The notes beneath the pieces were generated by a model. It saw only the letters and a program-made list of their open reading frames with translations. It did no database searches and had not been told where the DNA came from. A stretch of DNA of 63,829 bases, the filler included, from Octopus bimaculoides (taxonomy: Eukaryota): NCBI RefSeq assembly GCF_001194135.2. It is 6 parts of 6 records of this genome, joined end to end, with 100 filler letters (N's around TTAATTAATTAA, not from the genome) between each part and the next. Parts side by side here need not be neighbours in the genome. Positions count along the whole stretch, not along the records: positions 50,733 to 62,726 come from NC_068981.1; positions 62,827 to 63,829 come from NW_026431732.1; 4 more parts are not named here. The stretch is one strand, 5' to 3'. Below, in pieces: positions 2,811-63,829 of this stretch. Each line of letters opens with the position of its first letter. The stretch's first letter is position 1. The translations under genes were made by a program, and so were the position numbers.

Positions 2811-3774
2811 CTGAAATAGAAATGTTGATGTTTTGGTTAAGAATATCTTGCAATATCATAATTTTCATTCAACATATATTATGCAGAAATAACTCTCCTC
2901 TTGGGTCGGCATTTCTATATCTTTTAACTTTTACTCGTTACAGTCATTAGACAGCGGTCATACTGGAGCATCGCATTGAAGAATTTTAGTCGAACGAATC
3001 GACCCCAGTACTTAATTTTTTAAAGATTGGTACTTATTCTACCTGTCTCTTTTTCGGAACGCTTAGTTACGGAGACGCAAACACACCAACACCGGTAGTC
3101 AAGCAGTGGTGGGAACATAGACACAAAGACGCACACACACATACACACACACACCATGCACAAATACACACAGATAGATAGATAAATATACGACGGGCTT
3201 CTTTCAGTTTTCATCTATCAAATCTACTCGCAAGGCTTTGGTTGGTCCGAGGTTATAGTAGAAGACACTTGCCTAAGGTGCCACACTGTGGGACTGAACA
3301 CACGCACAGTCACAGATATCCTCATACATTCTCTCATTGGGTAGCTGTTTCAGTTCGGACATGCTCTCGCAAACTAGTGTGTTGATATCTTTTTACAAAT
3401 GAAAATTGGCTGCTAATTTTATGTTGATCATCGATGTGAAAGGACTGTACGTAAAAAGCCATGATGTGCATCATACCATACAGTGAAAATGATTCTAGTA
3501 ATTCAGTTGGATCTTGAATATTTTTTAAGTAAAAGTTATTCGTTGTTAGTTAATCACTATATAAAAAGTTCTGCTTTGATATAAATTTTGAAAAATTAGT
3601 GAAGTGTTATTGCTGTATAGTAAGGAAATGTACATGAGTAAGCAAGCACGCGCATGCGCGCACAGACTCACACGTATATATGTGAAATTTAGGGGAAGAA
3701 ATGACAACACACGAATTTTTTAATTTTACGAAATTAAAAAAAAATTCTCCATAATTCTATTGAAACTGTAATAT

Positions 3775-12149: not shown

Positions 12150-12372
12150 TGGAGGCGCGTGGCTTGGTGGTTAGGGTGTCAGTATCACGATCATAAGATT
12201 GTGGTTTCGATTCCTGGACCGGGCGACTTCATTTCACGTTGCTCCAGACTACTCAGCTGGCAAAAATGAGTAACGCTGCGATGGACTGGCGTCCCGTCCA
12301 GATGGGGAACACATACGCCATTGAAACCGGAAAACCGGGTCCATGAACCTTGCTAGGCTTTAAAAGGGCGCA
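12150..12372 (+). mobile_element. tRNA-derived SINE
   Basis: ggaggcgcgtggcttggtggttagg (A box) and ggtttcgattcc (B box), then a gatggactggcgtcccgtccag core; a related copy lies on the minus strand at about 36940-37190. Confidence 0.8.
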
Positions 12373-22984: not shown

Positions 22985-23290
22985 ATAGTATAAGATGTAT
23001 AGAGGGGAGTCAGCACGGAGCATAGGAGAGCGGGTAAATGTACATTGGAGGGAACTTAAGGAAGAGAAGAGCTCATCCGATCTGTACCAGCACGCCAAGC
23101 AGGAACACGGGTCTCACTCAATAACATAGAAGTTAAAATCTTGTCCACACATAGAAGAGACGCAACGCTTAGACACATTACGGAAGCTGCACACATAATT
23201 GAAGATAAACTTAGCTTGAATAGGAAACTAGAATGGAACACTAGCACACACTCCCAACACACCACAACCTATGACAGAATAAGATCCCCA
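22985..23290 (+). mobile_element. Penelope-like element, GIY-YIG endonuclease fragment
   Basis: MYRGESARSIGERVNVHWREL...LYQHAKQEH, then after a frameshift VKILSTHRRDATLRHITEAAHII. Confidence 0.65.
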
Positions 23291-23371
23291 CAAACTGATA
23301 ATAATATGAATATAATACAATGCACAGATAAATAAATGGAATTAAATAAGCAAATAAATTAAATTTGATCC

Positions 23372-25655: not shown

Positions 25656-26614
25656 TATATATATATCCTTGAAATTTGTTGCCTCTTTGAAACTTTTAAT
25701 TTTACAGCACAAGCACATAAGCTAACCATCATATCTGCCCGTTAACAGTTTCTTGACACTCATTCATGGTGATTGGAAGCATACATTTGTGAAAATCTTG
25801 TTTGATGATTTCATTTCCCGTTTTAAATTACAGAAAATTACGGTTGTATTCTTGTCTTGCATAAATATTTTGTTCATTCATTCATATTTTCCTTGCTTTT
25901 CAGGTTCTTTTTTTTTTTCTGATTTTTGTTTTCTGCTTCAGTCTTCCGTTTCAAATATCTGAAAATTACAATTCTATTTCTTTCTATCATTTCTGTAATT
26001 CAGTTTTCTTTCTTTTTTCTTGTCACTTCCTCCGTTTTCATGTTTACAAATATCGAAATATTGCCAGTAATGTTAAATCTTATATTTCAGGTCCGTTTTC
26101 AATATTCGTCGCCCTTTGAAGTTACATTTTCACTTCATTATCTTTTCAAACGAATGATCTCATTACATATGTTGTCCTACACTGAACAATTTGCACTCCT
26201 GATAAATATACTTTCTATATTCTCTGTTCTGTATTCTGGATTTAAGAATTACCACGTCTATACAAGAATCCTGTCACTTCACATTCTGTTTCCATGCAAT
26301 CAATTCCGTAAATATTTTCCAACATTTAATTAATTCAGTTTCCCTTGCCATAATGGTCATTCAACATGCTAGAAACAACAGCTTTATCCCTGTCAGATCA
26401 AAGCACTTCACAGGTCTTTTTATGAATGTATCACACTAACAGATGACTAAGTAGTTATTATATAAGATCCACATAATACAAAAATTTACACTTAGGGTTT
26501 TCAGAAATAAGCTTTCTATAACTTAATTAACATTCAGTTTTCTCAGACATCTTGCTCCTTTCACATTATATTGGCTTGCCAGTACCAACACATTTCTCCG
26601 AATTCTTTGAATAT

Positions 26615-26776
26615 ACATTATTTACATTTGACAGATATTTGTCCTCATCTTGTTTGTTGTTAACACAACGTTTCGGCTGATATACTCTCCAGCCTTCATC
26701 AGGTGTCTTAGGGAAATTTCGAACCTAGGTTCTCATTTCTAAGGTTTTTTCGACATGATTATTATTATTATTATTA

Positions 26777-26824
<48 letters not shown>

Positions 26825-27006
26825 TCACTGCCTGGAATTGAACTCGGAATCTTGGGTTTAGTAGCCTGCGTGCTTAACCACTACGTCATATACCCGATGA
26901 AAGCTGGAGGGTATATTAGCTGATACGTTGTGTTAATAACAAGCAAGATGAGGACAAATATCCGTCAAATGTAAATAGTTCCTCATCTCTTAAATATAGA
27001 ACTGTA
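26615..27006 (-). mobile_element. Non-autonomous Penelope pLTR derivative: tRNA-like head, (AAT)n, hammerhead and tail, plus an inverted partial pLTR, flanked by a TSD
   Basis: Minus-strand unit 26895 to 26615; inverted plus-strand copy 26893-27006; direct repeat ATTCTTTGAATAT at 26602-26614 and 27006-27018. Confidence 0.85.
26662..26707 (-). ncRNA. Minimal type I hammerhead ribozyme motif (family 1)
   Basis: GACAC-CUGAUGA-A-GGCUG(gagaguauau)CAGCC-GAAA-CG-UU-GUGUU: core intact, stem I GACAC/GUGUU, stem II GGCUG/CAGCC, palindromic AACGUU in place of stem III. Confidence 0.8.
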
Positions 27007-28809
27007 TTCTTTGAATATGTTTTCTATTTGTAAGCGGGAATCTTTCCTGAAATTTTATAGGATCATTAAACTACCTATGTAAGGTAATATAGTATCTTTT
27101 CTTTTCGTTTTCATTTAATGACATCGCTTTACTTGTTTCGTTAACTTTTCACCTGCATCACTCAAAAACTTTTTTCAAACATTTGTATCATTTACAAACG
27201 CTGCAATCCTTCAAGCAAATAACAACAATCTTCTAAACGTTCTTTGTAAATATTTCTGCTCACAAAATCAAATTAACGTAAAACATTCCGTTTCCCTTGG
27301 TCATGGTTATAACAACAATAATTCATTCATTTGTCAAAGCATTTTCCTTATGAAATACACTTGTCATCATTCTTTTAAATTCGGTTACTCCGTCAAGCAT
27401 GTAAATTACAAATCCACATCATACTACTAACAGCCTGTATAATCAACACGTGACAGCATTGCTGTCTTCACACGGCATCATATAATTCATTTCTTCGGTA
27501 AGAGTACACATACATAACTCCATCTCTTATGTTGATAAATTATATACATTATGTCAGAAAACTTTTGATATTTCTCTCCAATATTGAAATACATAACAGC
27601 AAACTTTATAGTCAAAAGCTTCTTCGTGTTCGTATGTTTAACACAAGCCACAGCCTGCGCATGTGCAGATACATGTATCGTCATTATGTTCACAAACTCA
27701 GGAGGAAGTTATGACAACTAATGAAAATAATCAGAATTGGTAAATGAAACTGGTAAAAGAGAAGATTATCTCGAGGCATTAGTGAAATCATGAAAATTTC
27801 TGAATTCTTTCCAGTGTGTGTCCAATTTGAATCTCTTTGAAATGACAAGTATTGTCAGCGATAATTGGAATTTCATGAACATATTAACTGGTGTTCACAA
27901 CAAATGATTGAAAATGCTTAGAAAAACTGTGAACAAATCTTTTAAAATTATATATATAGGTATACAAACCTCACGTGACCCAAATAACTTGGATGCTTTC
28001 CTGTGGTTTTAATTACACAAAAAGATGCTGGGGATCATTTTATCGTTTTTGGAGGGGATTTTTCGTGAATTAGCCGCACCCTAATTTAGTTATAAATCTT
28101 GGTGCAAATGTTTTTCCATAATAATTTTAGCTTTGCTCCATGTATAAGTCACACCCCAGTTGTTCAGGTAAAATAAAACATAAAACAGTGTGACAAATAC
28201 CCGAGTAAATACAGTAACTCTAATATCAAAACCTACACTCCCAAGGAATATTTTAACCAAAGAGAGACTATATAAAACCAAGATTATCTCCAATATATCT
28301 CAGTCCGATGATGGCTTAAGTGGCCGAACCTTCGAGGTTACTATCAATAATATTGTTGTGTAAGAATAATAAATTTGTACTTCATAAAAGTATAGAGTAA
28401 CTCATCAGATTAATGTAAAATTGTGTATAAGTGAACACAAAAGCAAACATTAACACATTGTATATATGTATGTATATGTAGTTTAGTATGATCATAATTT
28501 TAGAAGGTTCTTAGTCACACTGAATAGCCGTTGGCTGTATAGAATATTAGTTCAGCTGCGTGTGAAGGTGAAAATGATTACGCTAATATTCGGTATAAGT
28601 TTACAAATTTTTTATTACTCAGAACATTAGCATTTACATATGTGCCACTATTATTTAAATAAATCTGCATATAAGAGAAAGTAAATGTGATAGTTACAAG
28701 TCTTTGTTGCATAAAATATTCGAGTAATTTATATGAAAATCGTTCATGATCATTAAAGACTGAATTATTAGAAAACGTAAGAACACATTATCATAAAACT
28801 GAGCAACAG

Positions 28810-34233: not shown

Positions 34234-34351
34234 CATTACGGCCATATCACTTTGAAATCACCGATTCTCGTCCGATCACCGAAGTTAAGCAACATCGAGC
34301 CTAGTTAGTACTTAGATGGGTGACCGCTTGGGACAGCTAGGTGCCGTAAAC
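34234..34351 (+). pseudogene. 5S rRNA-derived sequence, full length, fused to a SINE/LINE 3' tail (34360-34413)
   Basis: tacggccatatcactttgaaatcaccgattctcgtccgatcaccgaagttaagcaacatcgagcctagttagtacttagatgggtgaccgcttggga...gtgccgtaaac is colinear with molluscan 5S rRNA but carries scattered substitutions. Confidence 0.85.
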
Positions 34352-35145
34352 GTCTTTCCTAAAGGCGGTGCTCCAGCATGGCCACAGTTAAATGAAACAA
34401 GTAAAAGAATAAAATAATTAAAAGTACGTGTTGTCTTGTATCGATATATAAAGTCATTTCTATCAGATAATTTTGTTAGTGCTTTGAAGTAAATGTTAAA
34501 TATTTGACTTGCTGTGATTTTAAAGAAGTTTATATTCAGTTTAGTTTCAGTGCTAATGATCTTCATAGAGCCATAAACTCAACAGAGCCTCGTTTATATA
34601 CAATATAAATTCCGAAATTTTTAGTGTTACGATTTAGAGACACAATAACAGTCAGAAAAAAGACAACCAGCCATTTTTTAATTCGTTATAATTTCATAAT
34701 TTACCATAACTGTTGCTGTATTATCTCTTTAAACGAAACGAATTAAGCATCTATGATTGGATGACGAAATGCATGTCTATATTCAGAAACAACTTCAGTA
34801 AACACATCATCAAGCTAAACTTGAAAATAGATTTCATGGCTAAGCATACGAGTAGAGATAGACAAACAAACACATAAGCAGATAGGTAAAATGTAGCAGA
34901 CATCCGACATGAATCGAGTTATAATTCTTAAACATATGAATCATAAATTGTTATTAAAAACAGTTGTAGTAAAATTTCGGGCATATCATTATGCAATTTA
35001 TTACCAAACATGTCAGAAGCTAATTATATTAATGCTATTTACTTTTTTATAAAAACAATGCTATTTAAATACACGTATATAGATGCGCAAAATCTAAATA
35101 GCGAATTATATATGTAATGCTTAAATCTGTGTACGCATACATACG

Positions 35146-36942: not shown

Positions 36943-39248
36943 ATGGGCTGTGTTGTCCTGAAGGTAAAGTTCCTTTCTGAATCATAGACTCCTAGGTCCG
37001 GTTTCCCAGTCTCCGTGGCATATATATTCCCCACCTGGACGGGATGCCAGTCTGTTGCCGGATTACTCATTTGTGCCAATGTAAAATGAAGTGTTTTGCT
37101 CAAGAACACAATGTGTCGCCCGGTCTAGGAATCGAAACCAAAGTCTTATGATTATGAGTCCAACACCCTAACCACTAAGCTACGCGTTTCCACTGGATGT
37201 CCTAAAATATGATTTAAAAGAATAGCCTTCAAATGGAACTAACTTGAAAATAATCAAAGGCGCATTTACGTTTAAGGGGAAGCTACTCTTTCGACAAGTC
37301 TGGTAGTTATCTCTCTTAAATTTCTTTCTATAAGCTGCTACTGTAATTTCGTTTTTTCTTTTGTTTGTCGTTCNNNNNNNNNNNNNNNNNNNNNNNNNNN
37401 NNNNNNNNNNNNNNNNNNNNNNNNNNNNNNNNNNNNNNNNNNNNNNNNNNNNNNNNNNNNNNNNNNNNNNNNNNNNNNNNNNNNNNNNNNNNNNNNNNNN
37501 NNNNNNNNNNNNNNNNNNNNNNNNNNNNNNNNNNNNNNNNNNNNNNNNNNNNNNNNNNNNNNNNNNNNNNNNNNNNNNNNNNNNNNNNNNNNNNNNNNNN
37601 NNNNNNNNNNNNNNNNNNNNNNNNNNNNNNNNNNNNNNNNNNNNNNNNNNNNNNNNNNNNNNNNNNNNNNNNNNNNNNNNNNNNNNNNNNNNNNNNNNNN
37701 NNNNNNNNNNNNNNNNNNNNNNNNNNNNNNNNNNNNNNNNNNNNNNNNNNNNNNNNNNNNNNNNNNNNNNNNNNNNNNNNNNNNNNNNNNNNNNNNNNNN
37801 NNNNNNNNNNNNNNNNNNNNNNNNNNNNNNNNNNNNNNNNNNNNNNNNNNNNNNNNNNNNNNNNNNNNNNNNNNNNNNNNNNNNNNNNNNNNNNNNNNNN
37901 NNNNNNNNNNNNNNNNNNNNNNNNNNNNNNNNNNNNNNNNNNNNNNNNNNNNNNNNNNNNNNNNNNNNNNNNNNNNNNNNNNNNNNNNNNNNNNNNNNNN
38001 NNNNNNNNNNNNNNNNNNNNNNNNNNNNNNNNNNNNNNNNNNNNNNNNNNNNNNNNNNNNNNNNNNNNNNNNNNNNNNNNNNNNNNNNNNNNNNNNNNNN
38101 NNNNNNNNNNNNNNNNNNNNNNNNNNNNNNNNNNNNNNNNNNNNNNNNGGGGGTGGGGGCGGTGAAATTAAAAAAAAGTTTTTTCTTTGCATATTCGTAA
38201 TCTCCGACATCTTTAAACGTACGAATCCGAAAAAATATTTTCAAAAAAAATGCATTTTTCAAGGAGAGGTGCGGAACTGCACTAGCCCGCAATAATTATT
38301 ACTATTCTCTTTGGTTCGAATTCGGTAATTGAATACTCAGTTTAAATTCACTTTGTAATGGTGTAACCATTGATTGAGACGCGTTTTATTTTACTCCCCC
38401 ATTTTTCTGTCTTCATATGTTTTCACTCCTCATTCCATTTTGTAGAAGAGCATAGACTCAAAATGTTTAAGACTTCTTGCATTTTTTCTGAGCATCAAAC
38501 TAATACACCCTGTTTGTTGTTCTTCAACATGTCTCTGTTTTCTTTTGTAAATTTTTGAACAACACACACACAGTTCATAACAACTTTGACTATGTGACTT
38601 AGTTTCATGGGCTTGTACAAAGAACCCATTTCGTCAGATATCCAGGTATGGAGCTTGGGCAAGTGTCTTCTATGGTTTAATGCCAAATGACTGAATCTGG
38701 TAGATGGAAACTGTGTGGAATCCTACTGTGTGTGCATGTATGTATGTGTGTCTTTGTGTTTGTATTGTCCCCTACACCACCTGACAACAAGTGTTAGTTT
38801 GTTTATGTTCCCTGTAACTTAGCTGTTTGGCAAAAGAGATCGTTGGAATGAGTACTAGCGTTAAAAAAAAAAACTCCTGGATTTGATTTGTTTGACTGAA
38901 ACCCTTCAAGGTGGTGCTCCAGTATGGCTGCAATTCAATGAGTGAAATGAAGCCAAAGATGAAAAGTCTAAATTAATTGAATTAATTAAATTTGATTCTT
39001 TTATTCTTTTACTTGTTTCACTTAACCTTCAACACAAAGATACGCACTCAGAAGGCTTTAGTTGACCCAAGACTATAGTTAGAAGACACTTGCTCAAGGT
39101 GCCACACAGTGGGACTGAACCCAGAACCATGCTGTTGGGAAGCAAGCTTCTTACCACATAGCCACACCTGTGCCTAATAATAATAATAATAATGTGTGTG
39201 TACGTGTGCCTTTTTAATTAAAAAAATTTTGTTTTTCAATTAATACAG

Positions 39249-39398
39249 GAAAATGAAATCAACAAAATTGAAGCTGAAATTGCAGCATTGAAGGAGGGAG
39301 AGGTCACTGCAGGTGGAAGCATGGCATTACCACCAGAAGTAGAAGCACTTAAGTCAGAAAATGTCAAACTTCAATACCAACTTGACCATTTGAAAAGT
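39249..39398 (+). CDS. RARS1: Cytoplasmic arginyl-tRNA synthetase, exon encoding the N-terminal coiled-coil extension
   Basis: aatacag acceptor and gtgagt donor; 150 nt, phase 0/0; ENEINKIEAEIAALKEGE...VEALKSENVKLQYQLDHLKS resembles human EEEIKSLTAEIDRLK...LQEENLKLKYRLNILRK. The upstream start-codon exon was not found and may lie in the gap at 37374-38148. Confidence 0.88.
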
Positions 39399-54821: not shown

Positions 54822-56862
54822 TAACACACCCACACATACCCACGCATATACACACACATACATGAAAGGGCGTGAACACATACACACATACATGCACACA
54901 TATGTGAAGTACACCTTCTCTGAAGAGCGGTTAGCAATATTTGAAATGGTTCACCAGGAGACTCGCTTCTCTATTTTCTTCGCCCATCGAAAACATAAAG
55001 GGGATTTTTTAACATTCTTATAATTTCCTGTTGCAGCTAGGCTTTCTAATATTGAAATGTACTTCAGGCCTTCTACGTTGTGTATAAAATGTATATAATC
55101 TAATTAATGAGTAACCGCCTAAAGGGCACAAATATGAAAATTAAGATAGTCATTAGAGTAATAGCTTCATTCTTGACTACTTTATATGGGTGCTAAATAC
55201 TCTTTGCTATTGATTAGGGAAGGAGATCAGATAAGTTTCCTCTGAGGAGTGTCAACAAATTGCAACAAATAGAAAAATGGTCCTCACATAGAGAGTATAG
55301 AAAGAATGTGTTTACATTTTTATAATTTCTTTCAAAGCTAGGTTTCCTAATAATATATTTATTCCACACACAAACAAGCGTGCGCGCACACACACACATA
55401 CACACACATGCACACATATTTAAAGATAGATTCTTTGCAATTGAATAGACAGAAAGTTGATAGAAAGAAAGTAACAGACGTGTCGTCTTTGAACGTAAAG
55501 AAAAAGAAATTCAAGTGAAAAAATAAGACTAAAAAGTCATTGAAAATACAAATATACCATAGAGGAGACAAATAGAGTATTGCAGAAAAGAGAGAAAGAG
55601 GGAGAATATCAGAAAGAGAGGGAGGGAAGATGGAGTGAAAGAGATACTGAGATGTTAAGAAATGAGAGTGTGAGAAGGACAGAGAGAGGAAGAGAGAGAA
55701 AAGGGCTGAGATGATAACGTGTGAGTGAATGAGTCAGGTGAAATGGCGATCAAATATCTTCAGGTAAATAGGGAAGAAATGAGTCTGTATTTGTGTGTGT
55801 ATGTGTATGTGTGTGCATGTTTGTGTGTGTGTGTGTGTATGTGTGTGTGTGTGTGTGTGTGTGTTTATATATACNNNNNNNNNNNNNNNNNNNNNNNNNN
55901 NNNNNNNNNNNNNNNNNNNNNNNNNNNNNNNNNNNNNNNNNNNNNNNNNNNNNNNNNNNNNNNNNNNNNNNNNNNNNNNNNNNNNNNNNNNNNNNNNNNN
56001 NNNNNNNNNNNNNNNNNNNNNNNNNNNNNNNNNNNNNNNNNNNNNNNNNNNNNNNNNNNNNNNNNNNNNNNNNNNNNNNNNNNNNNNNNNNNNNNNNNNN
56101 NNNNNNNNNNNNNNNNNNNNNNNNNNNNNNNNNNNNNNNNNNNNNNNNNNNNNNNNNNNNNNNNNNNNNNNNNNNNNNNNNNNNNNNNNNNNNNNNNNNN
56201 NNNNNNNNNNNNNNNNNNNNNNNNNNNNNNNNNNNNNNNNNNNNNNNNNNNNNNNNNNNNNNNNNNNNNNNNNNNNNNNNNNNNNNNNNNNNNNNNNNNN
56301 NNNNNNNNNNNNNNNNNNNNNNNNNNNNNNNNNNNNNNNNNNNNNNNNNNNNNNNNNNNNNNNNNNNNNNNNNNNNNNNNNNNNNNNNNNNNNNNNNNNN
56401 NNNNNNNNNNNNNNNNNNNNNNNNNNNNNNNNNNNNNNNNNNNNNNNNNNNNNNNNNNNNNNNNNNNNNNNNNNNNNNNNNNNNNNNNNNNNNNNNNNNN
56501 NNNNNNNNNNNNNNNNNNNNNNNNNNNNNNNNNNNNNNNNNNNNNNNNNNNNNNNNNNNNNNNNNNNNNNNNNNNNNNNNNNNNNNNNNNNNNNNNNNNN
56601 NNNNNNNNNNNNNNNNNNNNNNNNNNNNNNNNNNNNNNNNNNNNNNNNNNNNNNNNNNNNNNNNNNNNNNNNNNNNNNNNNNNNNNNNNNNNNNNNNNNN
56701 NNNNNNNNNNNNNNNNNNNNNNNNNNNNNNNNNNNNNNNNNNNNNNNNNNNNNNNNNNNNNNNNNNNNNNNNNNNNNGAGAACATTGTTTTTGTTTTGTT
56801 TTTTTGGGGTGAGGCTTTGGAGACAATGGAAGATGGATAAGCAGAGAGACAGACAGACAGGC

Positions 56863-56921
<59 letters not shown>

Positions 56922-57109
56922 AAGGTGGGTAGGGTAAAAGAGAGAGAGAGAAGGGTTATTCATTTTCCTATCCATCACTTTCATTGTATTGAAATGGTCT
57001 TTTTAAGGATTTTCAAATAAATAAATAAATAAATAAATAAATAAAGGTAAAAACTTGTTTACTACTTACACCATTGTTTTTTAGATGGTTTTCTAAGGAT
57101 GGTAAGAAA

Positions 57110-57630
57110 AGGAGGAAAATCAGAGTTTTCATCTTACGGAATAACAGACGCCAACCAAAAAATCCTAAAGAAAACACCTCACAAGGACAGAATTCAGATC
57201 AGAGACTAAATCAGAATTCGTAGTAAAAGAATGTGGAGATAGGAGATGTGGAACGTGTCACAATACCAACAACTTCAAATACATAGAAAGCGGTTCCCAC
57301 ATAAAGTTCAAGAGCGGATCTATTTTAAAAATAAATGCAGATATGAACTGTAAAACACAAAATCTCATATACTGCATTACCTGCCCAAACTGTAAAGAAA
57401 ATTACATCGGCGAAACGAATAATCCCTCTGCCAACGTGCAAGAATTCACAGGCAACATATTCGGCAAGAAGAACTAAGAATGATTCCATTGAGTAAACAT
57501 CTAGAAATATGCGGAGACGGAAAGTTCAAAATATTTCCCTTTTAGAAATGTACATGGGACGATCCACAATACCGAAAGGCAATGGAACCACACTTCATAA
57601 AAAGATTTTCTCCGAAGTTTAATGTTTGAA
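57110..57630 (+). mobile_element. Penelope-like element, zinc finger and GIY-YIG region
   Basis: CGDRRCGTC...MNCKTQNLIYCITCPNCKENYIGETN...RKAMEPHFIKRFSPKFN. Confidence 0.85.
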
Positions 57631-58172
57631 AGAGAAAAAAGAAAAGCAAAGAGTACGTTTTGTATGTATGTATATGTATATATGTGTGGGTATGACATGA
57701 TATATATATATATATAGTTATTTTTACTAATTGATTTTTCAAATTTACAAATATTATACTAATGTGTTCTCATGCAGAACTACACCTTACCAAAAATAAA
57801 TAAATAAATGTATGACAGGAATATATTCTGAATATGACTCAAAGAATATAAAAAGAAAGGACTAAAACAGAAAAGACAGGAAAACATTTTTTATATTTTA
57901 TTTATATTTTCTATTTCTTATTCTCTATTTTTTCTTCTTTCTTTTTCTTTTCTTTTCTTCCTTTTCTTACCATCCCTAGAAACCATCTCAAAACAATGGT
58001 GCAAGTAGTAAACAAGTTTTTACCTTTATTTATTTATTTTTTGACAACCTTAAAAAGGTCATTTCAATACAATGGATAGGAAAATGAATAGCCTTTTTCT
58101 CTCTCTTTTAGCCTACCCATCTATCTATCTATCTATCTNNNNNNNNNNNNNNNNNNNTCTATTTATCTATCC

Positions 58173-58263
<91 letters not shown>

Positions 58264-58319
58264 CATCTTCCATTGTCTCCAAAGCCTCACCCCAAAAAAG
58301 CAAAACAAAAACAATGTTT

Positions 58320-58890
58320 TTGGCCATATTCTTTTCTGTTGGAGGTTTTACTCCAAAGAGATATTTGCAAAGTGTTGTATTACTCTTGAATACTGTCCTG
58401 ATGTCATCTGGGCCACATATCTTTTGTATATTTTCGGAGAGGCCTTCCACATAGGGTAGACGGACTGTGGACAGTTTATTGGCCTCATCCTCTCCCCTCT
58501 TCATAACTGGAGTGGATAGTATACTTTTGGGATAGTTGTTGCTTAACATATTGTTATTGAGCTTGATCATTTCTTCGTGGTGTGTATCACGATAGCTACT
58601 TATATTCTTTGCACGATGTTTTAGGCACTGAGCAATCCCTCTCTTACACTATATGGATGGTTGGAATTGAAGTTGAGGTATCGTCCAGTAAAGGTCGGCT
58701 TGCGGTATACGGATGCCTGAATCCATACTTGGTGCGTGTTATTAATACGGCCAGCAATGCCAGCTGATTGTCTTTTTCCTTTTCCATTGTGAACTGTATG
58801 GATGACTTTATTGAGTTCACATGATCTAACAGCACTTGGACATCTTCCTGGTGGGGACAGAGTATAAAGGTGTCATCAACATATCGTAGG
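58320..58890 (-). mobile_element. Penelope-like element, RT and linker fragment
   Basis: LRYVDDTFI...LLDHVNSIKSSIQFTMEKEKDN and LPYVEGLSENIQKIC...IRTVFKSN. Confidence 0.88.
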
Positions 58891-59218
58891 AGGGTTTAGC
58901 TATGGGATTGCCATTATCACTGGTAATAGCCAATATATACACGGAATACTTTGAGAATTTGGGTTTAGCACCACTGGAAAATACGAAAACTAAAAGAAAC
59001 AGCACATATGCTAGGACACAACAACCTCCTAAGCAGACGGAGTGCAGATATGAGCAGCAAATGGAAACCGGTATTAAGGAAGGTTAGAAAAATATTAGAT
59101 TTATAAGCCCTAAAATTCACTCCATAATTGCCCACGGGCATATGGTTAAGTGGTTAAGAGCGCGGCTACTAACCCCAAGATTCCGAGTTCGATTCCAAGC
59201 AGCGACCTGTATAATAAT
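58890..59218 (+). mobile_element. Penelope-like fragments: RT motif, ORF C-terminus and start of the pLTR with tRNA-like head
   Basis: GLAMGLPLSLVIANIYTEYFENL; HWKIRKLKETAHMLGHNNLLSRRSADMSSKWKPVLRKVRKILDL* (stop at 59104-59106); tRNA-like head at 59136-59207. Confidence 0.8.
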
Positions 59219-59568
59219 CGGATGCAGTACCAGGCAGTGGATCTCATGGCTTCTGATCTTAATTAATTGGATGTGTTATCATGTACATTGTTTTGTCTTG
59301 GTATAAAACATGGGCTACAGCAAATATTCTGTTTAATACCACAGATTTGCTTGTCAGTTGTTTGACTTTAACCAGTTGAGCATGTCCCTTGGTGGATGAC
59401 GATATGTGAATCTCTGATCATGAGCAGAAGTAGTGGGGGAGCAACATAGCCATGTGTTGAGAGAAATTCTTTGGGGTTTGAATAATTCACCTTTAGAAAC
59501 ATGGATGTTTTGCTCAACTTCCTTATAGTTCTATATATTTCGTAAGAAAGAATAATGATACTATTTTC

Positions 59569-59601
<33 letters not shown>

Positions 59602-59605
59602 TTTA

Positions 59606-60709
59606 TCAGCTCATCCCATAAATAATGCGATTTTTTATACTTCTGTTATTTTTCAAAATCAAGATAAACAAAGTTCTTTCTTAATCTAAAATATGCTCTC
59701 CTTCATTTTCTATAACGCTCTTACATCTCTCTGGCAGACTTGCAAGGCTTCCGTTTCAAAATTTACTTGTCCGTGACGAAGAATATTCTTCCAGTACTGT
59801 TCTGACCTCGCCTACAGAATTCCAAATGATTTTGAAGACTGCGGAATAAATGATAATCAGATAGGACAATGTCCAGCGAATATGGTGCGTGGGACATCGT
59901 TTCTCATTCAAACTGCTCCAGTCTTTGGAATGTCATCCTCGCTGTATGTGGCCGAGTATTATCCTGATGGAACAACACCTTTCGTCTTGAAACTAAAGAC
60001 GATCGTTTTTCTTCTAGCGCTGACTTAAGCCACTCAAGCTGCTCGCAGTAGATTTCCTTTGTTATCGTTTGGTTTGTGTTTAAAATTTCAAAGTGGTCTA
60101 AACCTTTCATATCCCACCAAACAGATAACACCTTACGTAGGTGAAGACCTTCTTTAGCTTGGGGTGCCGGAAAGTTTGTGAGGAACCCATTGATCCAATT
60201 TTCTGACTTTTCCGATGGCACGCAGGTATCGATGAATTATTGAATGACCAAATCCAAGTTTCTCTGCTAGTCTCTCAACAGTTACGATGGGATTTTGTTC
60301 CACCAGGATTTGCAGGACGCCCTCGTCGAGCTCTAGAGATATTTCTGGATGAGGCCCGTCTTCTCGACTGTAATTTCGGCTCGGAATTTCTAGAAGCACC
60401 GTTGACACTGGCTTACGCTTATTGTCCGATCCCCATATACTACATTAATATTCCTCGCACTCTCCGTTACGTTGATGCCTTTATTGAACTCACAAAGCAA
60501 AATATGCCGAATATGCTCCTTCTATTATAGCTTTGAAAAAATAACTGCTAAAATCGTCCTGCACTCTTCAAAACTTGCACTAAGAATAAGGACAAGGTAG
60601 AATTACTACCTGCTTTTATAGCAAGTTGATGCAGATAGTCTATCTCCTCTCCCTTCTACTTTTAGTTCATGCAATTGAAAAAAACCGCATTATTTATGGG
60701 ATGACCCTA
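59606..60709 (-). mobile_element. Mariner transposon with both TIRs, internally decayed
   Basis: TIRs ..tcatcccataaataatgcg.ttttt / aaaaaccgcattatttatgggatgaccc|ta; transposase remnants VLSVWWDMKG, LFHQDNTRPH and PYSPDI..SDYHLF. Confidence 0.9.
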
Positions 60710-62565
60710 TATATATAACATGGTGTTTCTAGGACATTATTACCTCAGTATGTGTGACACATTGATTCCGTAAATCACACCAGGTCGTTTGACGGATTAT
60801 TTATCTGCTCATCTTGAGCTAACCTAGGGTTATACAGCAACAATAACAACAATACTTTCTTCATCTTCACCATCATGACAGAATCGGTAAAGATTCTATC
60901 AAAATCCCTACCACAGCGAGTAGTAGTTTCTACTTGGCTGCTCAACCTACAAGAAATATCAGCCAAATCTTTCTTCAATGACGTTTAAAGTAGGAAGACC
61001 ATGTTAGACAATGCGGTCTTTCTATTTTAAACGTGATTTACAAAAACATCGTTTGTTCCTGGTCGGAAAGTCTTTGATTATGTTTTCTGGAACTGGCCAG
61101 ACCTGGTAGTAAACAACTTCATTTCGCTGTAATCATTCTCCTCCATATCAAAATCATCTTCGTTGTCACCGTTCACCTCTTCATTTCTGTCCTTTTCCAT
61201 CTTTTCCAACTCTTCTTCTTCTTCTTCTTCTTCTTCTTCTTCTTCTTTCTTTCTTTTCTTCGTCTTCTTTCTTTTTTTTTCTTCTTCTTCTTCTTCTTCT
61301 TCTCATTCTACTTTTCCTCCTCCTCCTCCTTCTTCTCCTCCTCCTCCTCCTCCTCCCCTCCTTCTCCTCCTCCTCCTCCTCATCATCATCGTCATCATCA
61401 TCATCATCAACTTGTCTTCATCGTCCTCTTCTTCATCCTTTTCNNNNNNNNNNNNNNNNNNNNNNNNNNNNNNNNNNNNNNNNNNNNNNNNNNNNNNNNN
61501 NNNNNNNNNNNNNNNNNNNNNNNNNNNNNNNNNNNNNNNNNNNNNNNNNNNNNNNNNNNNNNNNNNNNNNNNNNNNNNNNNNNNNNNNNNNNNNNNNNNN
61601 NNNNNNNNNNNNNNNNNNNNNNNNNNNNNNNNNNNNNNNNNNNNNNNNNNNNNNNNNNNNNNNNNNNNNNNNNNNNNNNNNNNNNNNNNNNNNNNNNNNN
61701 NNNNNNNNNNNNNNNNNNNNNNNNNNNNNNNNNNNNNNNNNNNNNNNNNNNNNNNNNNNNNNNNNNNNNNNNNNNNNNNNNNNNNNNNNNNNNNNNNNNN
61801 NNNNNNNNNNNNNNNNNNNNNNNNNNNNNNNNNNNNNNNNNNNNNNNNNNNNNNNNNNNNNNNNNNNNNNNNNNNNNNNNNNNNNNNNNNNNNNNNNNNN
61901 NNNNNNNNNNNNNNNNNNNNNNNNNNNNNNNNNNNNNNNNNNNNNNNNNNNNNNNNNNNNNNNNNNNNNNNNNNNCCCTTCCCTTCTCCTTTTCATTATC
62001 ACTGTTTTATTTTGTCTATTCATTCATTCATTCATTTATTTATTTATTTACATTTCCATATTTCCCAGACACAAAATCTCAAATATTTTAAGGAAGATTA
62101 AAAGAGAAGTGTAATGTTTTTTTGCCATTTCCCATGAGCTTTGGTGACGCAAAGTGCCGTAAAATGGATTCAGACGTGAAAAGAAACTGTGGAGAAGACT
62201 CAGTTCCCAGACGACTTTCTATGGTACTCCACAATAATCCATCGTTATCACAATCGTAATCCATCGGTTTTTAACCTCCTCCTCCTCCGCCTCCTACGCC
62301 TCCTACGCCTACTTCCGCCTCATATCGTCACATCGTTATTGTACGCTAATAACCCTACTCTCACACTCACACTCATACTCACACTCACCCCTCTTCCCCT
62401 CGATGTCTCTTTCTCTCTTCTTCCTTATCAACACATACTCCGCACCGTTGTCATCATCGCTAGCTATCGTTGTTGCCGTTGTCGTCGTCGTCGCCGTCAT
62501 AATCATCATCATCATCATCATCATCATCAACATCATCATCACTCTGCATCTTCTTGTTCTTGTTC

Positions 62566-62597
<32 letters not shown>

Positions 62598-63092
62598 CTT
62601 CTTCTTCTTCTTCTTCTTCTTCTTCTTCTTCTTCTTCTTCTTCTTCTTCTTCTTCTTCTTCCTCCTCATCATCATCTGCACCGTTATAATCATTATCATC
62701 ATCATATCATCGTCATCACCACCATCNNNNNNNNNNNNNNNNNNNNNNNNNNNNNNNNNNNNNNNNNNNNTTAATTAATTAANNNNNNNNNNNNNNNNNN
62801 NNNNNNNNNNNNNNNNNNNNNNNNNNCAACACACACAAACACACGTTACACACGCATACACACATACACACACTCACACGTCAGAGTCACTTGCCACTAT
62901 CCACACATACACGCTTACACACTCACACACACCATTCTCACATACACCCATACGCACGCGCACCTCCTCTTGTTGAGATCACAAGCATTATTATTATCTC
63001 CCTTTCTTTCAATCTCTTTACTTCCAGTCATACTGGAGCGCTAAACTCTACACGTTTTTTTTTTCATTCTCTCCCCGTTTGTCTTCTTATTC

Positions 63093-63128
63093 CTTTCTGC
63101 TGAAGAGCGTAGGCTCGAAACGTAAAAG
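63093..63128 (+). ncRNA. Hammerhead-like motif with variant core CUGCUGA (family 2)
   Basis: CUUU-CUGCUGA-A-GAGC(GUAG)GCUC-GAAA-CG-UA-AAAG; same architecture as family 1. A partial second copy is at 63258-63287 and a degenerate copy at about 38436-38475. Confidence 0.6.
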
Positions 63129-63312
63129 ACTTTTCCATTTTTGCCGAGCGTCAAATATATACACTTGCTTGTTGTTCATAAACCTGTCTTCAGTCGCCAG
63201 GATCAACCGCTAAGTCCGCAAGTATTTTATTCTCTCTCTGTTTATTTCCTCCTGCTCCTTTCTGTTGAAGAGCGTAGACTCGAAACGGGAAATTTCGAAC
63301 CTGGGTTCTCAA

Positions 63313-63646
63313 TATACATATAGAACTGTATTATCTAATCGGTACGGAGCCGACATTAAACTTCAATGGAGACATATAGAAAAACTCCATCAAAACCTAG
63401 TTCGTCTTTCAAACTATCTAACTTTCCTGTGAAGATGTAGAGACTCAAAGCTAATCCCAGCTGGCTTGGCTATATAATGACACCAAGGAATGAGAACCCA
63501 GGTTCGAAATTTTCCCAAGACACCTGATGAAGGCTGGAAGGTATATCAGCCGAAACGTTGTGCTAATAATAAACAAGATGAGGACAAATATCCGTCAACT
63601 GTAAATAATGTAAATAATGTACATAATTCCTCATCTCTTAGATATA
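63313..63646 (+). mobile_element. Penelope-like element: ORF N-terminal fragment and pLTR with hammerhead
   Basis: 63331-63470 reads LSNRYGADIKLQWRHIEKLHQNLVRLSNYLTFL*RCRDSKLIPAGL (FL.RC...LIP.GL, typical of PLE N-termini); the pLTR at 63485-63646 ends in the same atatagaactgta that precedes this fragment. Confidence 0.75.
63519..63564 (+). ncRNA. Minimal type I hammerhead ribozyme motif (family 1)
   Basis: GACAC-CUGAUGA-A-GGCUG(gaagguauau)CAGCC-GAAA-CG-UU-GUGCU; predicted cleavage after 63559. Confidence 0.8.
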
Positions 63647-63829
63647 GAACTGTACTACAAAATATAAATATCCACACTACCACGCTCGAAACGTACCTGT
63701 TATAACTCTTTATCTTGATTTGAATGGACGTGAAGGTATTTAGAAGGCCCAAACTTATTTCTGCAAATGTGCAAAGCACTGATGCTGACTATAGTTTAAT
63801 AAATAAGCATAGGAGCGAAGTAAATGAAG

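Follow-up and report, generated by a model that had tools for sequence, protein, structure and literature searches.

We describe here a protein-coding retrotransposon of octopuses whose pseudo-long terminal repeat (pLTR) opens with a tRNA-like sequence, the head, that carries the A and B boxes of an RNA polymerase III (Pol III) promoter. The element, a high-copy Penelope-like element (PLE) of the Penelope/Poseidon type, was assembled from five pieces found in a 63,829-nt stretch of Octopus bimaculoides DNA (the window), in which small scaffolds are strung together across N gaps; the pieces come from separate scaffolds. In this unit, the stop codon of the open reading frame (ORF) is almost certainly followed, after 29 nt, by the box-bearing head of 75 nt, then by (AAT)n, an ATG, a minimal type I hammerhead and a tail, which leads into the rest of the ORF. 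A Pol III-type head in the pLTR of a coding Penelope element is a family-wide and apparently undescribed architecture, and from sequence comparisons we put at roughly 0.6 the probability that the head serves Pol III as an internal start, if only for the short template RNAs of the element. For the transcription and pLTR regeneration of PLEs, an internal tRNA-type promoter at the beginning of the pLTR would amount to a defined, mutable transcription start.

The evidence that the head belongs to the family as a whole comes from contigs of public sequencing runs of two organisms (A and B). Around the one piece that retains the end of the ORF (copy A), contigs of three DNA runs and of run X17, which is guessed to be RNA and covers this stretch much like the DNA runs, were aligned to window positions 58860-59340. 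The final frame of copy A (HHWKIRKLKE...RKILDL) terminates at TAA 59104-59106 and is followed by the 29-nt spacer (59107-59135, + strand) and by the head (59136-59209) with the start of (AAT)n to 59218. Summed word depth, which is not equivalent to copy number and drops where the reference copy departs from the majority letters, amounts to 0.40-1.45 million across the ORF end (58979-59131), to 0.60-0.77 million at the junction 59135-59136 in the three DNA runs, and to 48-74 in single-copy flank; the depth of the spacer equals that of the ORF end in both organisms. Nine of the 32 contig pieces shown (~50,000 more exist) span the ORF-end/head junction with at least 31 letters on each side, all four runs being represented, and the bridging contigs differ from the window copy at 12-31 letters, two of them being possibly one locus in two runs. 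The initial annotation had considered that the head might be an independent SINE (short interspersed element) insertion in copy A alone. A private insertion of this kind would show near single-copy depth, so this explanation is rejected by a junction that is as deep as the ORF end in two organisms and is bridged by distinct contigs. The head is a fixed part of the pLTR across many copies of the two organisms. Another repeat family interrupts copy A after 59218, and the loose ends of contigs behind this position (206, 269 and 204 contigs) read (AAT)n.

Copies B and C join the head to the remainder of the pLTR. Copy B (42495-42614, + strand; seen in sequence and contigs) runs from head position +2 through (AAT)5 and a spacer to ATGAGAACC, with the ORF ATG behind the spacer, and is cut at 42614 by a DNA-transposon-like repeat. 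Ten of the 16 contig pieces listed for it extend from within the head to 42611-42614, and the loose ends past 42614 (55 + 51 contigs) read CAGGTTCGAAATTTCCCCAAGAC, which is the sequence preceding the hammerhead in copy C and piece D. Copy C, a discrete ORF-less insert (26615-27005) bounded by a 13-bp target duplication (26602-26614 and 27006-27018), carries the head-to-hammerhead order in one piece. Its long arm (26615-26895, - strand) has the head from +1, ~(AAT)25, the ATG at 26736 and the minimal hammerhead core at 26702, the last part of the tail being absent, while the inverted short arm (26892-27005, + strand) has the hammerhead and the full tail. The heads of copies A, B and C are 85-91% identical and pass into (AAT)n at one and the same base.

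The passage from the pLTR into the ORF is represented by pieces D and E. Piece D (63478-63654, + strand) contains the ATG at 63490, the hammerhead and the tail, with a frame that is open throughout and whose translation aligns with residues 22-63 of the intact, 861-residue relative P0155. Piece E (63287-63474, + strand) contains a 25-nt inverted scrap of pLTR (63287-63311), the tail end (63318-63330) and the N-terminus of the ORF, which matches residues 61-98 of P0155 (E 9e-11) and residues 31-81 of P0086; the tail end lies at 63642-63654 in piece D and at 26994-27006 in copy C. The two pieces overlap in the window by just 13 bases, and the proposed join of tail to ORF rests on this overlap together with the protein alignment. 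Since D and E align to adjoining residues of P0155, a single reading frame begins before the hammerhead and runs through it, placing the hammerhead in frame inside the PLE ORF. The order in which the initial annotation had tiled these pieces into one Penelope unit therefore holds, with contigs bridging both the stop-to-head and the head-(AAT)n-hammerhead steps and copy C showing the latter in one piece. All five pieces lie at or near the places first given for them, except that the tail of piece D ends at 63654, 8 nt past the original 63646, and the short ORF-less copies starting at the head that had been envisaged are represented by copies B and C.

In the family majority letters, the A box reads TGGCGTAGTGG, an exact match to TGGCNNAGTGG, at +8, and the B box reads AGTTCGATTCC, which agrees at 8 of 9 fixed positions and lies 33 nt after the A box; copy A likewise has its A box at +8 and its B box 32-33 nt later. 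The boxes are thus conserved across copies, as had been supposed, and their spacing of 32-33 nt falls inside the textbook range of 30-35 nt (PMC8969392; the published sources are cited throughout from excerpts). A search of the window for box pairs spaced 30-35 nt apart, with at most two mismatches per box from the consensus of the same source, detected ten, comprising the three present heads and seven other SINE-like heads, compared with 0-1 per shuffle in 20 shuffles. The possibility that the present head is merely one of the other SINE heads of the window was rejected, as identity to those heads is 43-49/75 versus 65-66/75 within the family. The seven other heads (at 12153, 33678, 37189, 39171, 40839, 41846 and 46085) represent at least two other SINE families.

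The likeness of the head to a tRNA appears to lie in its length and layout, with a poorly kept cloverleaf and intact promoter boxes. ARAGORN at default settings called none of the heads a tRNA and at a relaxed score yielded only an odd fold, and Rfam called none of them either. Folding is no better than that of shuffled sequences (z 0.4, -0.1 and 1.0), and a cloverleaf placed by hand on the three copies, in a register chosen by eye, has 55% of its cells paired and no covariation. A derivation from tRNA-Arg(ACG), favored at first, is not supported over other isotypes; tRNA-Met, tRNA-Arg(TCT) and tRNA-Ile all scored above it in a biased set of 16 viral tRNAs that had been preselected by a shared variable-loop/T-arm motif. 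The poor fold also bears on the idea that the head is a processing signal, in which a tRNA-like fold within a long Pol II transcript is cut by RNase P at +1. Long RNAs can contain tRNA-like processing elements, as in the MALAT1 type, and such a cut would explain a defined 5' end equally well. We nevertheless consider this idea very improbable, as the fold is poor by these measures while the promoter boxes are intact.

Several observations point to RNAs that begin at +1 of the head. The ORF-less copies in the window start at +2 (B) and +1 (C). In each of the four opposite-strand joints listed, one side falls on the first aligned base of the head and the position of the other side varies; the arms of one contig are separated by exactly GGGC. 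Loose ends at the head start are found in 193 and 192 contigs, with low agreement (0.46 and 0.49), and a rough mixture estimate has 10-27% of them continuing into the ORF-side spacer. The depth also peaks in the head, at 3-5 times that of the ORF end.

A number of points weigh against the use of the head as a Pol III start. The start evidence comes from contigs, which cannot show transcript starts, and the 3-5-fold step in depth is a soft one, word depth being sensitive to departures of the reference. The first bases of copy B depart from the majority, and as a result every contig that extends upstream is clipped at 42498; the amount of sequence between the arms of the four joints is not reported by the contig method; and the mixture estimate depends on assumptions about agreement, while contig counts favor unique junctions. 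The one-base departure at the first position of the B box is family-wide. The CpG of the B box is changed in 11-14% of the depth and the CpG just upstream in 12-13%, and this equality of rates indicates that there is no selection on the B-box CpG among dispersed copies, a result that is expected of dead copies and is uninformative on masters. Finally, a captured SINE head would have intact boxes whether or not they were used.

The head might accordingly be a passenger, that is, a tRNA-derived SINE that was captured behind the ancestral stop codon and has been copied along with an element transcribed by Pol II, either from another promoter in the pLTR or by read-through, in which case the ends at the head would reflect stalling of the reverse transcriptase (RT) or clipping of contigs. 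Such a history would agree with the TATA-less, LINE-like (long interspersed element-like) internal promoter that serves Drosophila Penelope (PMC2377424), with the fact that none of 39 relatives (described below) needs a head of this sort, and with the unselected B-box CpG; the (AAT)n past the head, moreover, resembles a retroposon tail, and it was there that another (AAT)n-ended repeat inserted in copy A. A passenger would not be expected to set the beginning of both ORF-less window copies at +1 or +2 or of four of the four listed joints at the head start, nor to be kept with intact boxes in two organisms, and along the ORF end no similar pile of 5' loose ends occurs among the best-supported places, the deletion break described below excepted. 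On balance we hold the passenger explanation to be doubtful, though a real contender.

A Pol III start within the head can be combined with what has been described for PLEs of other animals. In Drosophila virilis, where the Penelope promoter has been mapped, it lies within the pLTR and, in distinction to the octopus element, comes with an intron; the authors saw tandem formation as the sole mechanism of pLTR regeneration (PMC2377424). The octopus head occupies the corresponding place in the pLTR. For an anole element it has been reported that insert length is determined by the 5' end of the RNA, that reverse transcription begins internally in uncleaved RNA, at the tail, and that the template must hold ORF bases beyond the start of reverse transcription (PMC11167929). 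In an ancestral octopus element, a sequence derived from a tRNA, either a short SINE or a tRNA pseudogene ending in (AAT)n, might have been captured just past the stop codon, whereupon Pol III could begin at head +1 of a pLTR that precedes an ORF. The protein of the element would bind near the ORF start and prime reverse transcription at the tail inside uncleaved RNA, as in the anole, and copying back to the 5' end would produce solo pLTR inserts of 250-300 nt with their first base at head +1 and, in many cases, a second arm in inverse orientation; such inserts would be SINE-like in look but made by Penelope machinery. A Pol III start at +1 and priming of the anole type would together give solo pLTRs exactly like copy C. 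As they stop at the tail, without the ORF bases that the protein needs, the solo copies are probably poor templates and dead ends, that is, by-products rather than self-propagating SINEs or retrozymes.

The depth in the head of copy B is ~10 times that over the 33 bases behind its (AAT)n. This difference could mean that there are two families, an abundant head-(AAT)n SINE, most copies of which have no hammerhead, and Penelope pLTRs that repeatedly inserted in its tail, and PLEs are indeed reported to favor microsatellite and ATT targets (PMC8557442, PMC11167929). Repeated chance insertion cannot, however, yield an ORF-end/head junction as deep as the ORF end, and both window heads that can be evaluated lead into the same spacer and ATG, while a stretch of 33 bases is too short for full contig coverage. 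We regard the explanation by two families as quite improbable, but a head-only SINE may exist beside the element.

It seems unlikely, judging from the sequence, that Pol III transcription from the head in the upstream pLTR also extends across the whole ORF as well as the downstream pLTR. If it did, full-length copies would rebuild their own promoter-bearing pLTR without chance tandem insertion, the same promoter would shed SINE-like solo pLTRs, and a coding retrotransposon would be made from uncapped Pol III RNA. Pol III stops at T runs. The sense strand of 1260 non-redundant bases has no TTTT versus 17 AAAA, where 3.3 TTTT are expected by composition (P 0.03) and 1.9 by dinucleotides (P 0.10); the count covers less than half of the ORF, was made with hand-set piece borders, excludes a T-rich flank below 58316 and takes copy C, not piece D, for the pLTR stretch that they share. 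Piece D has one TTTT at a place that reads TTT in copy C, in the inverted scrap and in the majority letters of the contigs. Against a meaning for this deficit, 2 of 31 composition-matched relatives are also without TTTT in 1260 coding bases, as are 7 of 85 relatives across the whole match, and the deficit is at most a weak hint toward full-length Pol III transcription. The translation of an uncapped RNA with its ATG upstream of the ribozyme cut would in turn call for an explanation.

The hammerhead of piece D (63519-63564) has a stem I of 5 bp (63519-63523 with 63560-63564), CUGAUGA at 63524-63530, one extra A, a long stem II, GAAA at 63552-63555 and a palindromic AACGUU, with a predicted cut after 63559. 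By inspection, it shows the long stem II, the extra base after A9 and the palindromic positions 15.2-16.2 by which minimal type I hammerheads are recognized (PMC4209133). Stems I and II fold better than shuffles (z -1.7 and -2.2), and an Rfam search, proposed as a check on the hammerhead, called neither it nor the head. The minimal hammerhead of PLEs did not cleave in vitro as a monomer (PMC4209133), and the octopus hammerhead would probably need a partner copy or the protein of the element for cutting. Head-to-tail tandem arrays with at least two hammerheads are absent from the window, the two motifs of copy C being on opposite strands. Of the suggestion that pLTR RNAs are SINE-like or retrozyme-like, what remains is the existence of short copies that start at the head; a working ribozyme or retrozyme in each solo copy is rendered less credible by the minimal form of the hammerhead, the lack of arrays and, by the anole analogy, the absence of the ORF bases.

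The placement of the element as a Penelope/Poseidon-type PLE is by domain order and by the linker between RT and endonuclease. In copy A, an inverted and frameshifted piece (58307-58889, - strand) contains RT motif C (RYVDDTF), the thumb and the linker to the GIY-YIG start (tblastn to residues 234-435 of the relative P0036, 43-65% identity, E 1e-45; Pfam RVT_1, E 2.7e-4), and is followed by a piece with RT motif B (GLAMGLPLS; 58890-58967, + strand; P0036 residues 198-229). A deletion joins the latter to the C-terminus of the GIY-YIG domain with the stop codon (58969-59106, + strand; P0036 residues 498-534, 54% identity, E 5e-7), and contigs of all four runs have loose ends before 58969. A HMMER search with the RT piece detected 899 proteins at the cut-off of E 0.001; the thumb/linker piece had no match in word-index protein searches. 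The window pieces map in order on the relatives, D and E on P0155, and motif B, motif C, thumb/linker and GIY-YIG C-terminus on P0036, and fit one ORF with a PLE-type RT followed by a C-terminal GIY-YIG domain, whose core is deleted in the window copy and whose flanks are kept. No CX2-5CxxC zinc-finger linker motif occurs in 58645-58307 (aligned to P0036 residues 316-435), which by the criterion of PMC8557442 places the element with Penelope/Poseidon. Membership in Neptune/Nematis or Naiad is ruled out by domain order and linker; two short motifs are absent from the excerpted supplement of that source. The pLTR geometry is also PLE-like, with the inverted arms, single-arm tail and target duplication of copy C and the partial tandem of D and E, and inverted arms with a tail on one of them are the PLE signature as drawn in Fig. 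2 of PMC8557442; tandem or inverted arms and a tail of 30-40 bp at one end characterize the pLTRs of Penelope/Poseidon elements.

The octopus element shares with Drosophila virilis Penelope and Anolis Poseidon_Ac a single RT-GIY-YIG ORF without a zinc-finger linker, a minimal-hammerhead pLTR that overlaps the ORF start, inverted arms and a tail at one end. As in anole Poseidon, the reading frame runs through the hammerhead (PMC11167929), and the tail end lies 86-95 nt past the predicted cut (with or without a 9-nt duplication in piece D) versus ~85-92 nt in the anole. In contrast to these relatives, the octopus element has, 29 nt past its stop, a pLTR that opens with a head bearing A and B boxes, followed by a microsatellite.

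More distant relatives were drawn from metagenome and genome contigs as a set of 91 loci with 31-50% identity to P0036. An A/B-box pair within 500 bases behind the GIY-YIG end was found in none of the 39 with at least 150 bases behind that end, and a hammerhead-like motif 162-338 bases past the match in eight of these. The closest relative, locus L030, which has a tandem layout and is outside the 39, had no box pair in a scan of the whole locus, and ARAGORN, run on 49 of the 91 loci, called one tRNA, upstream of a truncated copy. The relatives are distant, partly redundant and often decayed, none being known to us as a cephalopod element, so that the comparison says no more than that the head is lineage-restricted. 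Neither the hammerhead nor the head, searched as exact DNA patterns, had a match in viral, metagenome or prokaryote-genome contigs, and a search for related loci in viral contigs had none. Locus L031 has an A/B-box pair (3070) and locus L095 an intact tRNA-Leu gene (3432-3511), each ~490 bases upstream of a 5'-truncated PLE match on the same strand and both probably in flanking sequence.

In SM-alpha and Sj-alpha of Schistosoma, short repeats are known to combine a Pol III-type promoter with a type I hammerhead behind it (PMC6765202, PMC8490949), the octopus promoter being a predicted one. SM-alpha differs in being non-coding and often tandem, with a canonical, active hammerhead, and the excerpts name no coding parent that carries the promoter; the octopus unit is the pLTR of a coding element and has a minimal, in-frame hammerhead. 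The non-LTR retrozymes of animals are likewise short hammerhead units related to PLE pLTRs (PMC7229834), to which they have been traced (bioRxiv 10.64898/2026.07.22.740005), but they consist of head-to-tail tandem units with at least two hammerheads and form circular RNA, and a Pol III promoter is not mentioned in the excerpts. With tRNA-derived SINEs (SINE2, and OR1 and OR2 of octopus), the solo copies share a 5' A/B-box head, short length and, in copy C, a target duplication. Unlike SINE2, the octopus body and ends are those of a PLE pLTR, with PLE insertion geometry and no LINE-type 3' tail; OR1 and OR2, which are CORE-SINEs (PMC4824008, PMC4758252), are set apart here by description, not by sequence.

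Full-text searches of the literature turned up no coding PLE described as having a tRNA-derived head in its pLTR, although the family may be deposited in Repbase, Dfam or SINEBase. The earlier impression that the arrangement was undescribed can thus be retained for coding Penelope elements, whereas the promoter-plus-hammerhead layout as such was already known from SM-alpha. The element would illustrate how SINE-like hammerhead repeats such as SM-alpha and the retrozymes can arise from a coding Penelope element, with parent and offspring in one genome. For O. vulgaris, 893 unclassified SINE families have been reported, along with 30 Penelope families of recent activity (PMC13282606), and many octopus repeats labelled as tRNA-SINEs or unclassified SINEs may be solo pLTRs of the Penelope family with the head.

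Some further features of the window were noted. Copy B sits in an intron of an arginyl-tRNA synthetase gene, ~50 bases behind an exon; the exons of this gene lie within 39222-42445, and the one at 41341-41508 shows 100% identity with the Octopus bimaculoides enzyme and 98% with that of O. vulgaris. The repeat that breaks the (AAT)n of copy A (59221-59540) is of very high copy number and is preceded elsewhere by (AAT)n and a fixed 7-base end; within it, 59524-59536 (- strand) matches the PLE tail end at 12 of 13 positions, either by chance or as a second PLE end. Directly before piece E are two partial tandem copies (63062-63122 and 63225-63290) of a second, distinct minimal hammerhead (CTGAAGA...GAAAC), to which a stretch at 38426-38534 is related; it would be the pLTR of another PLE family into which the present element inserted, or vice versa. 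The protein P0010, a close relative of the RT piece, ends in an out-of-frame tail containing TPEEG, which looks like the in-frame reading of another pLTR that bears a hammerhead. At 57169-57630 there is a PLE fragment with a cysteine-rich linker before GIY-YIG (Pfam GIY-YIG, E 0.012), Neptune-like by motif and flanked, by eye, by two inverted copies of one flank (~56778-57070 and 58000-58330). A frame at 23060-23335 resembles, by eye, the GIY-YIG C-terminus of a third PLE family and has no Pfam match. A 5S rRNA copy at 34234-34352 (Rfam, 88 bits), followed by just three T, might be a pseudogene or the head of a 5S-derived SINE.

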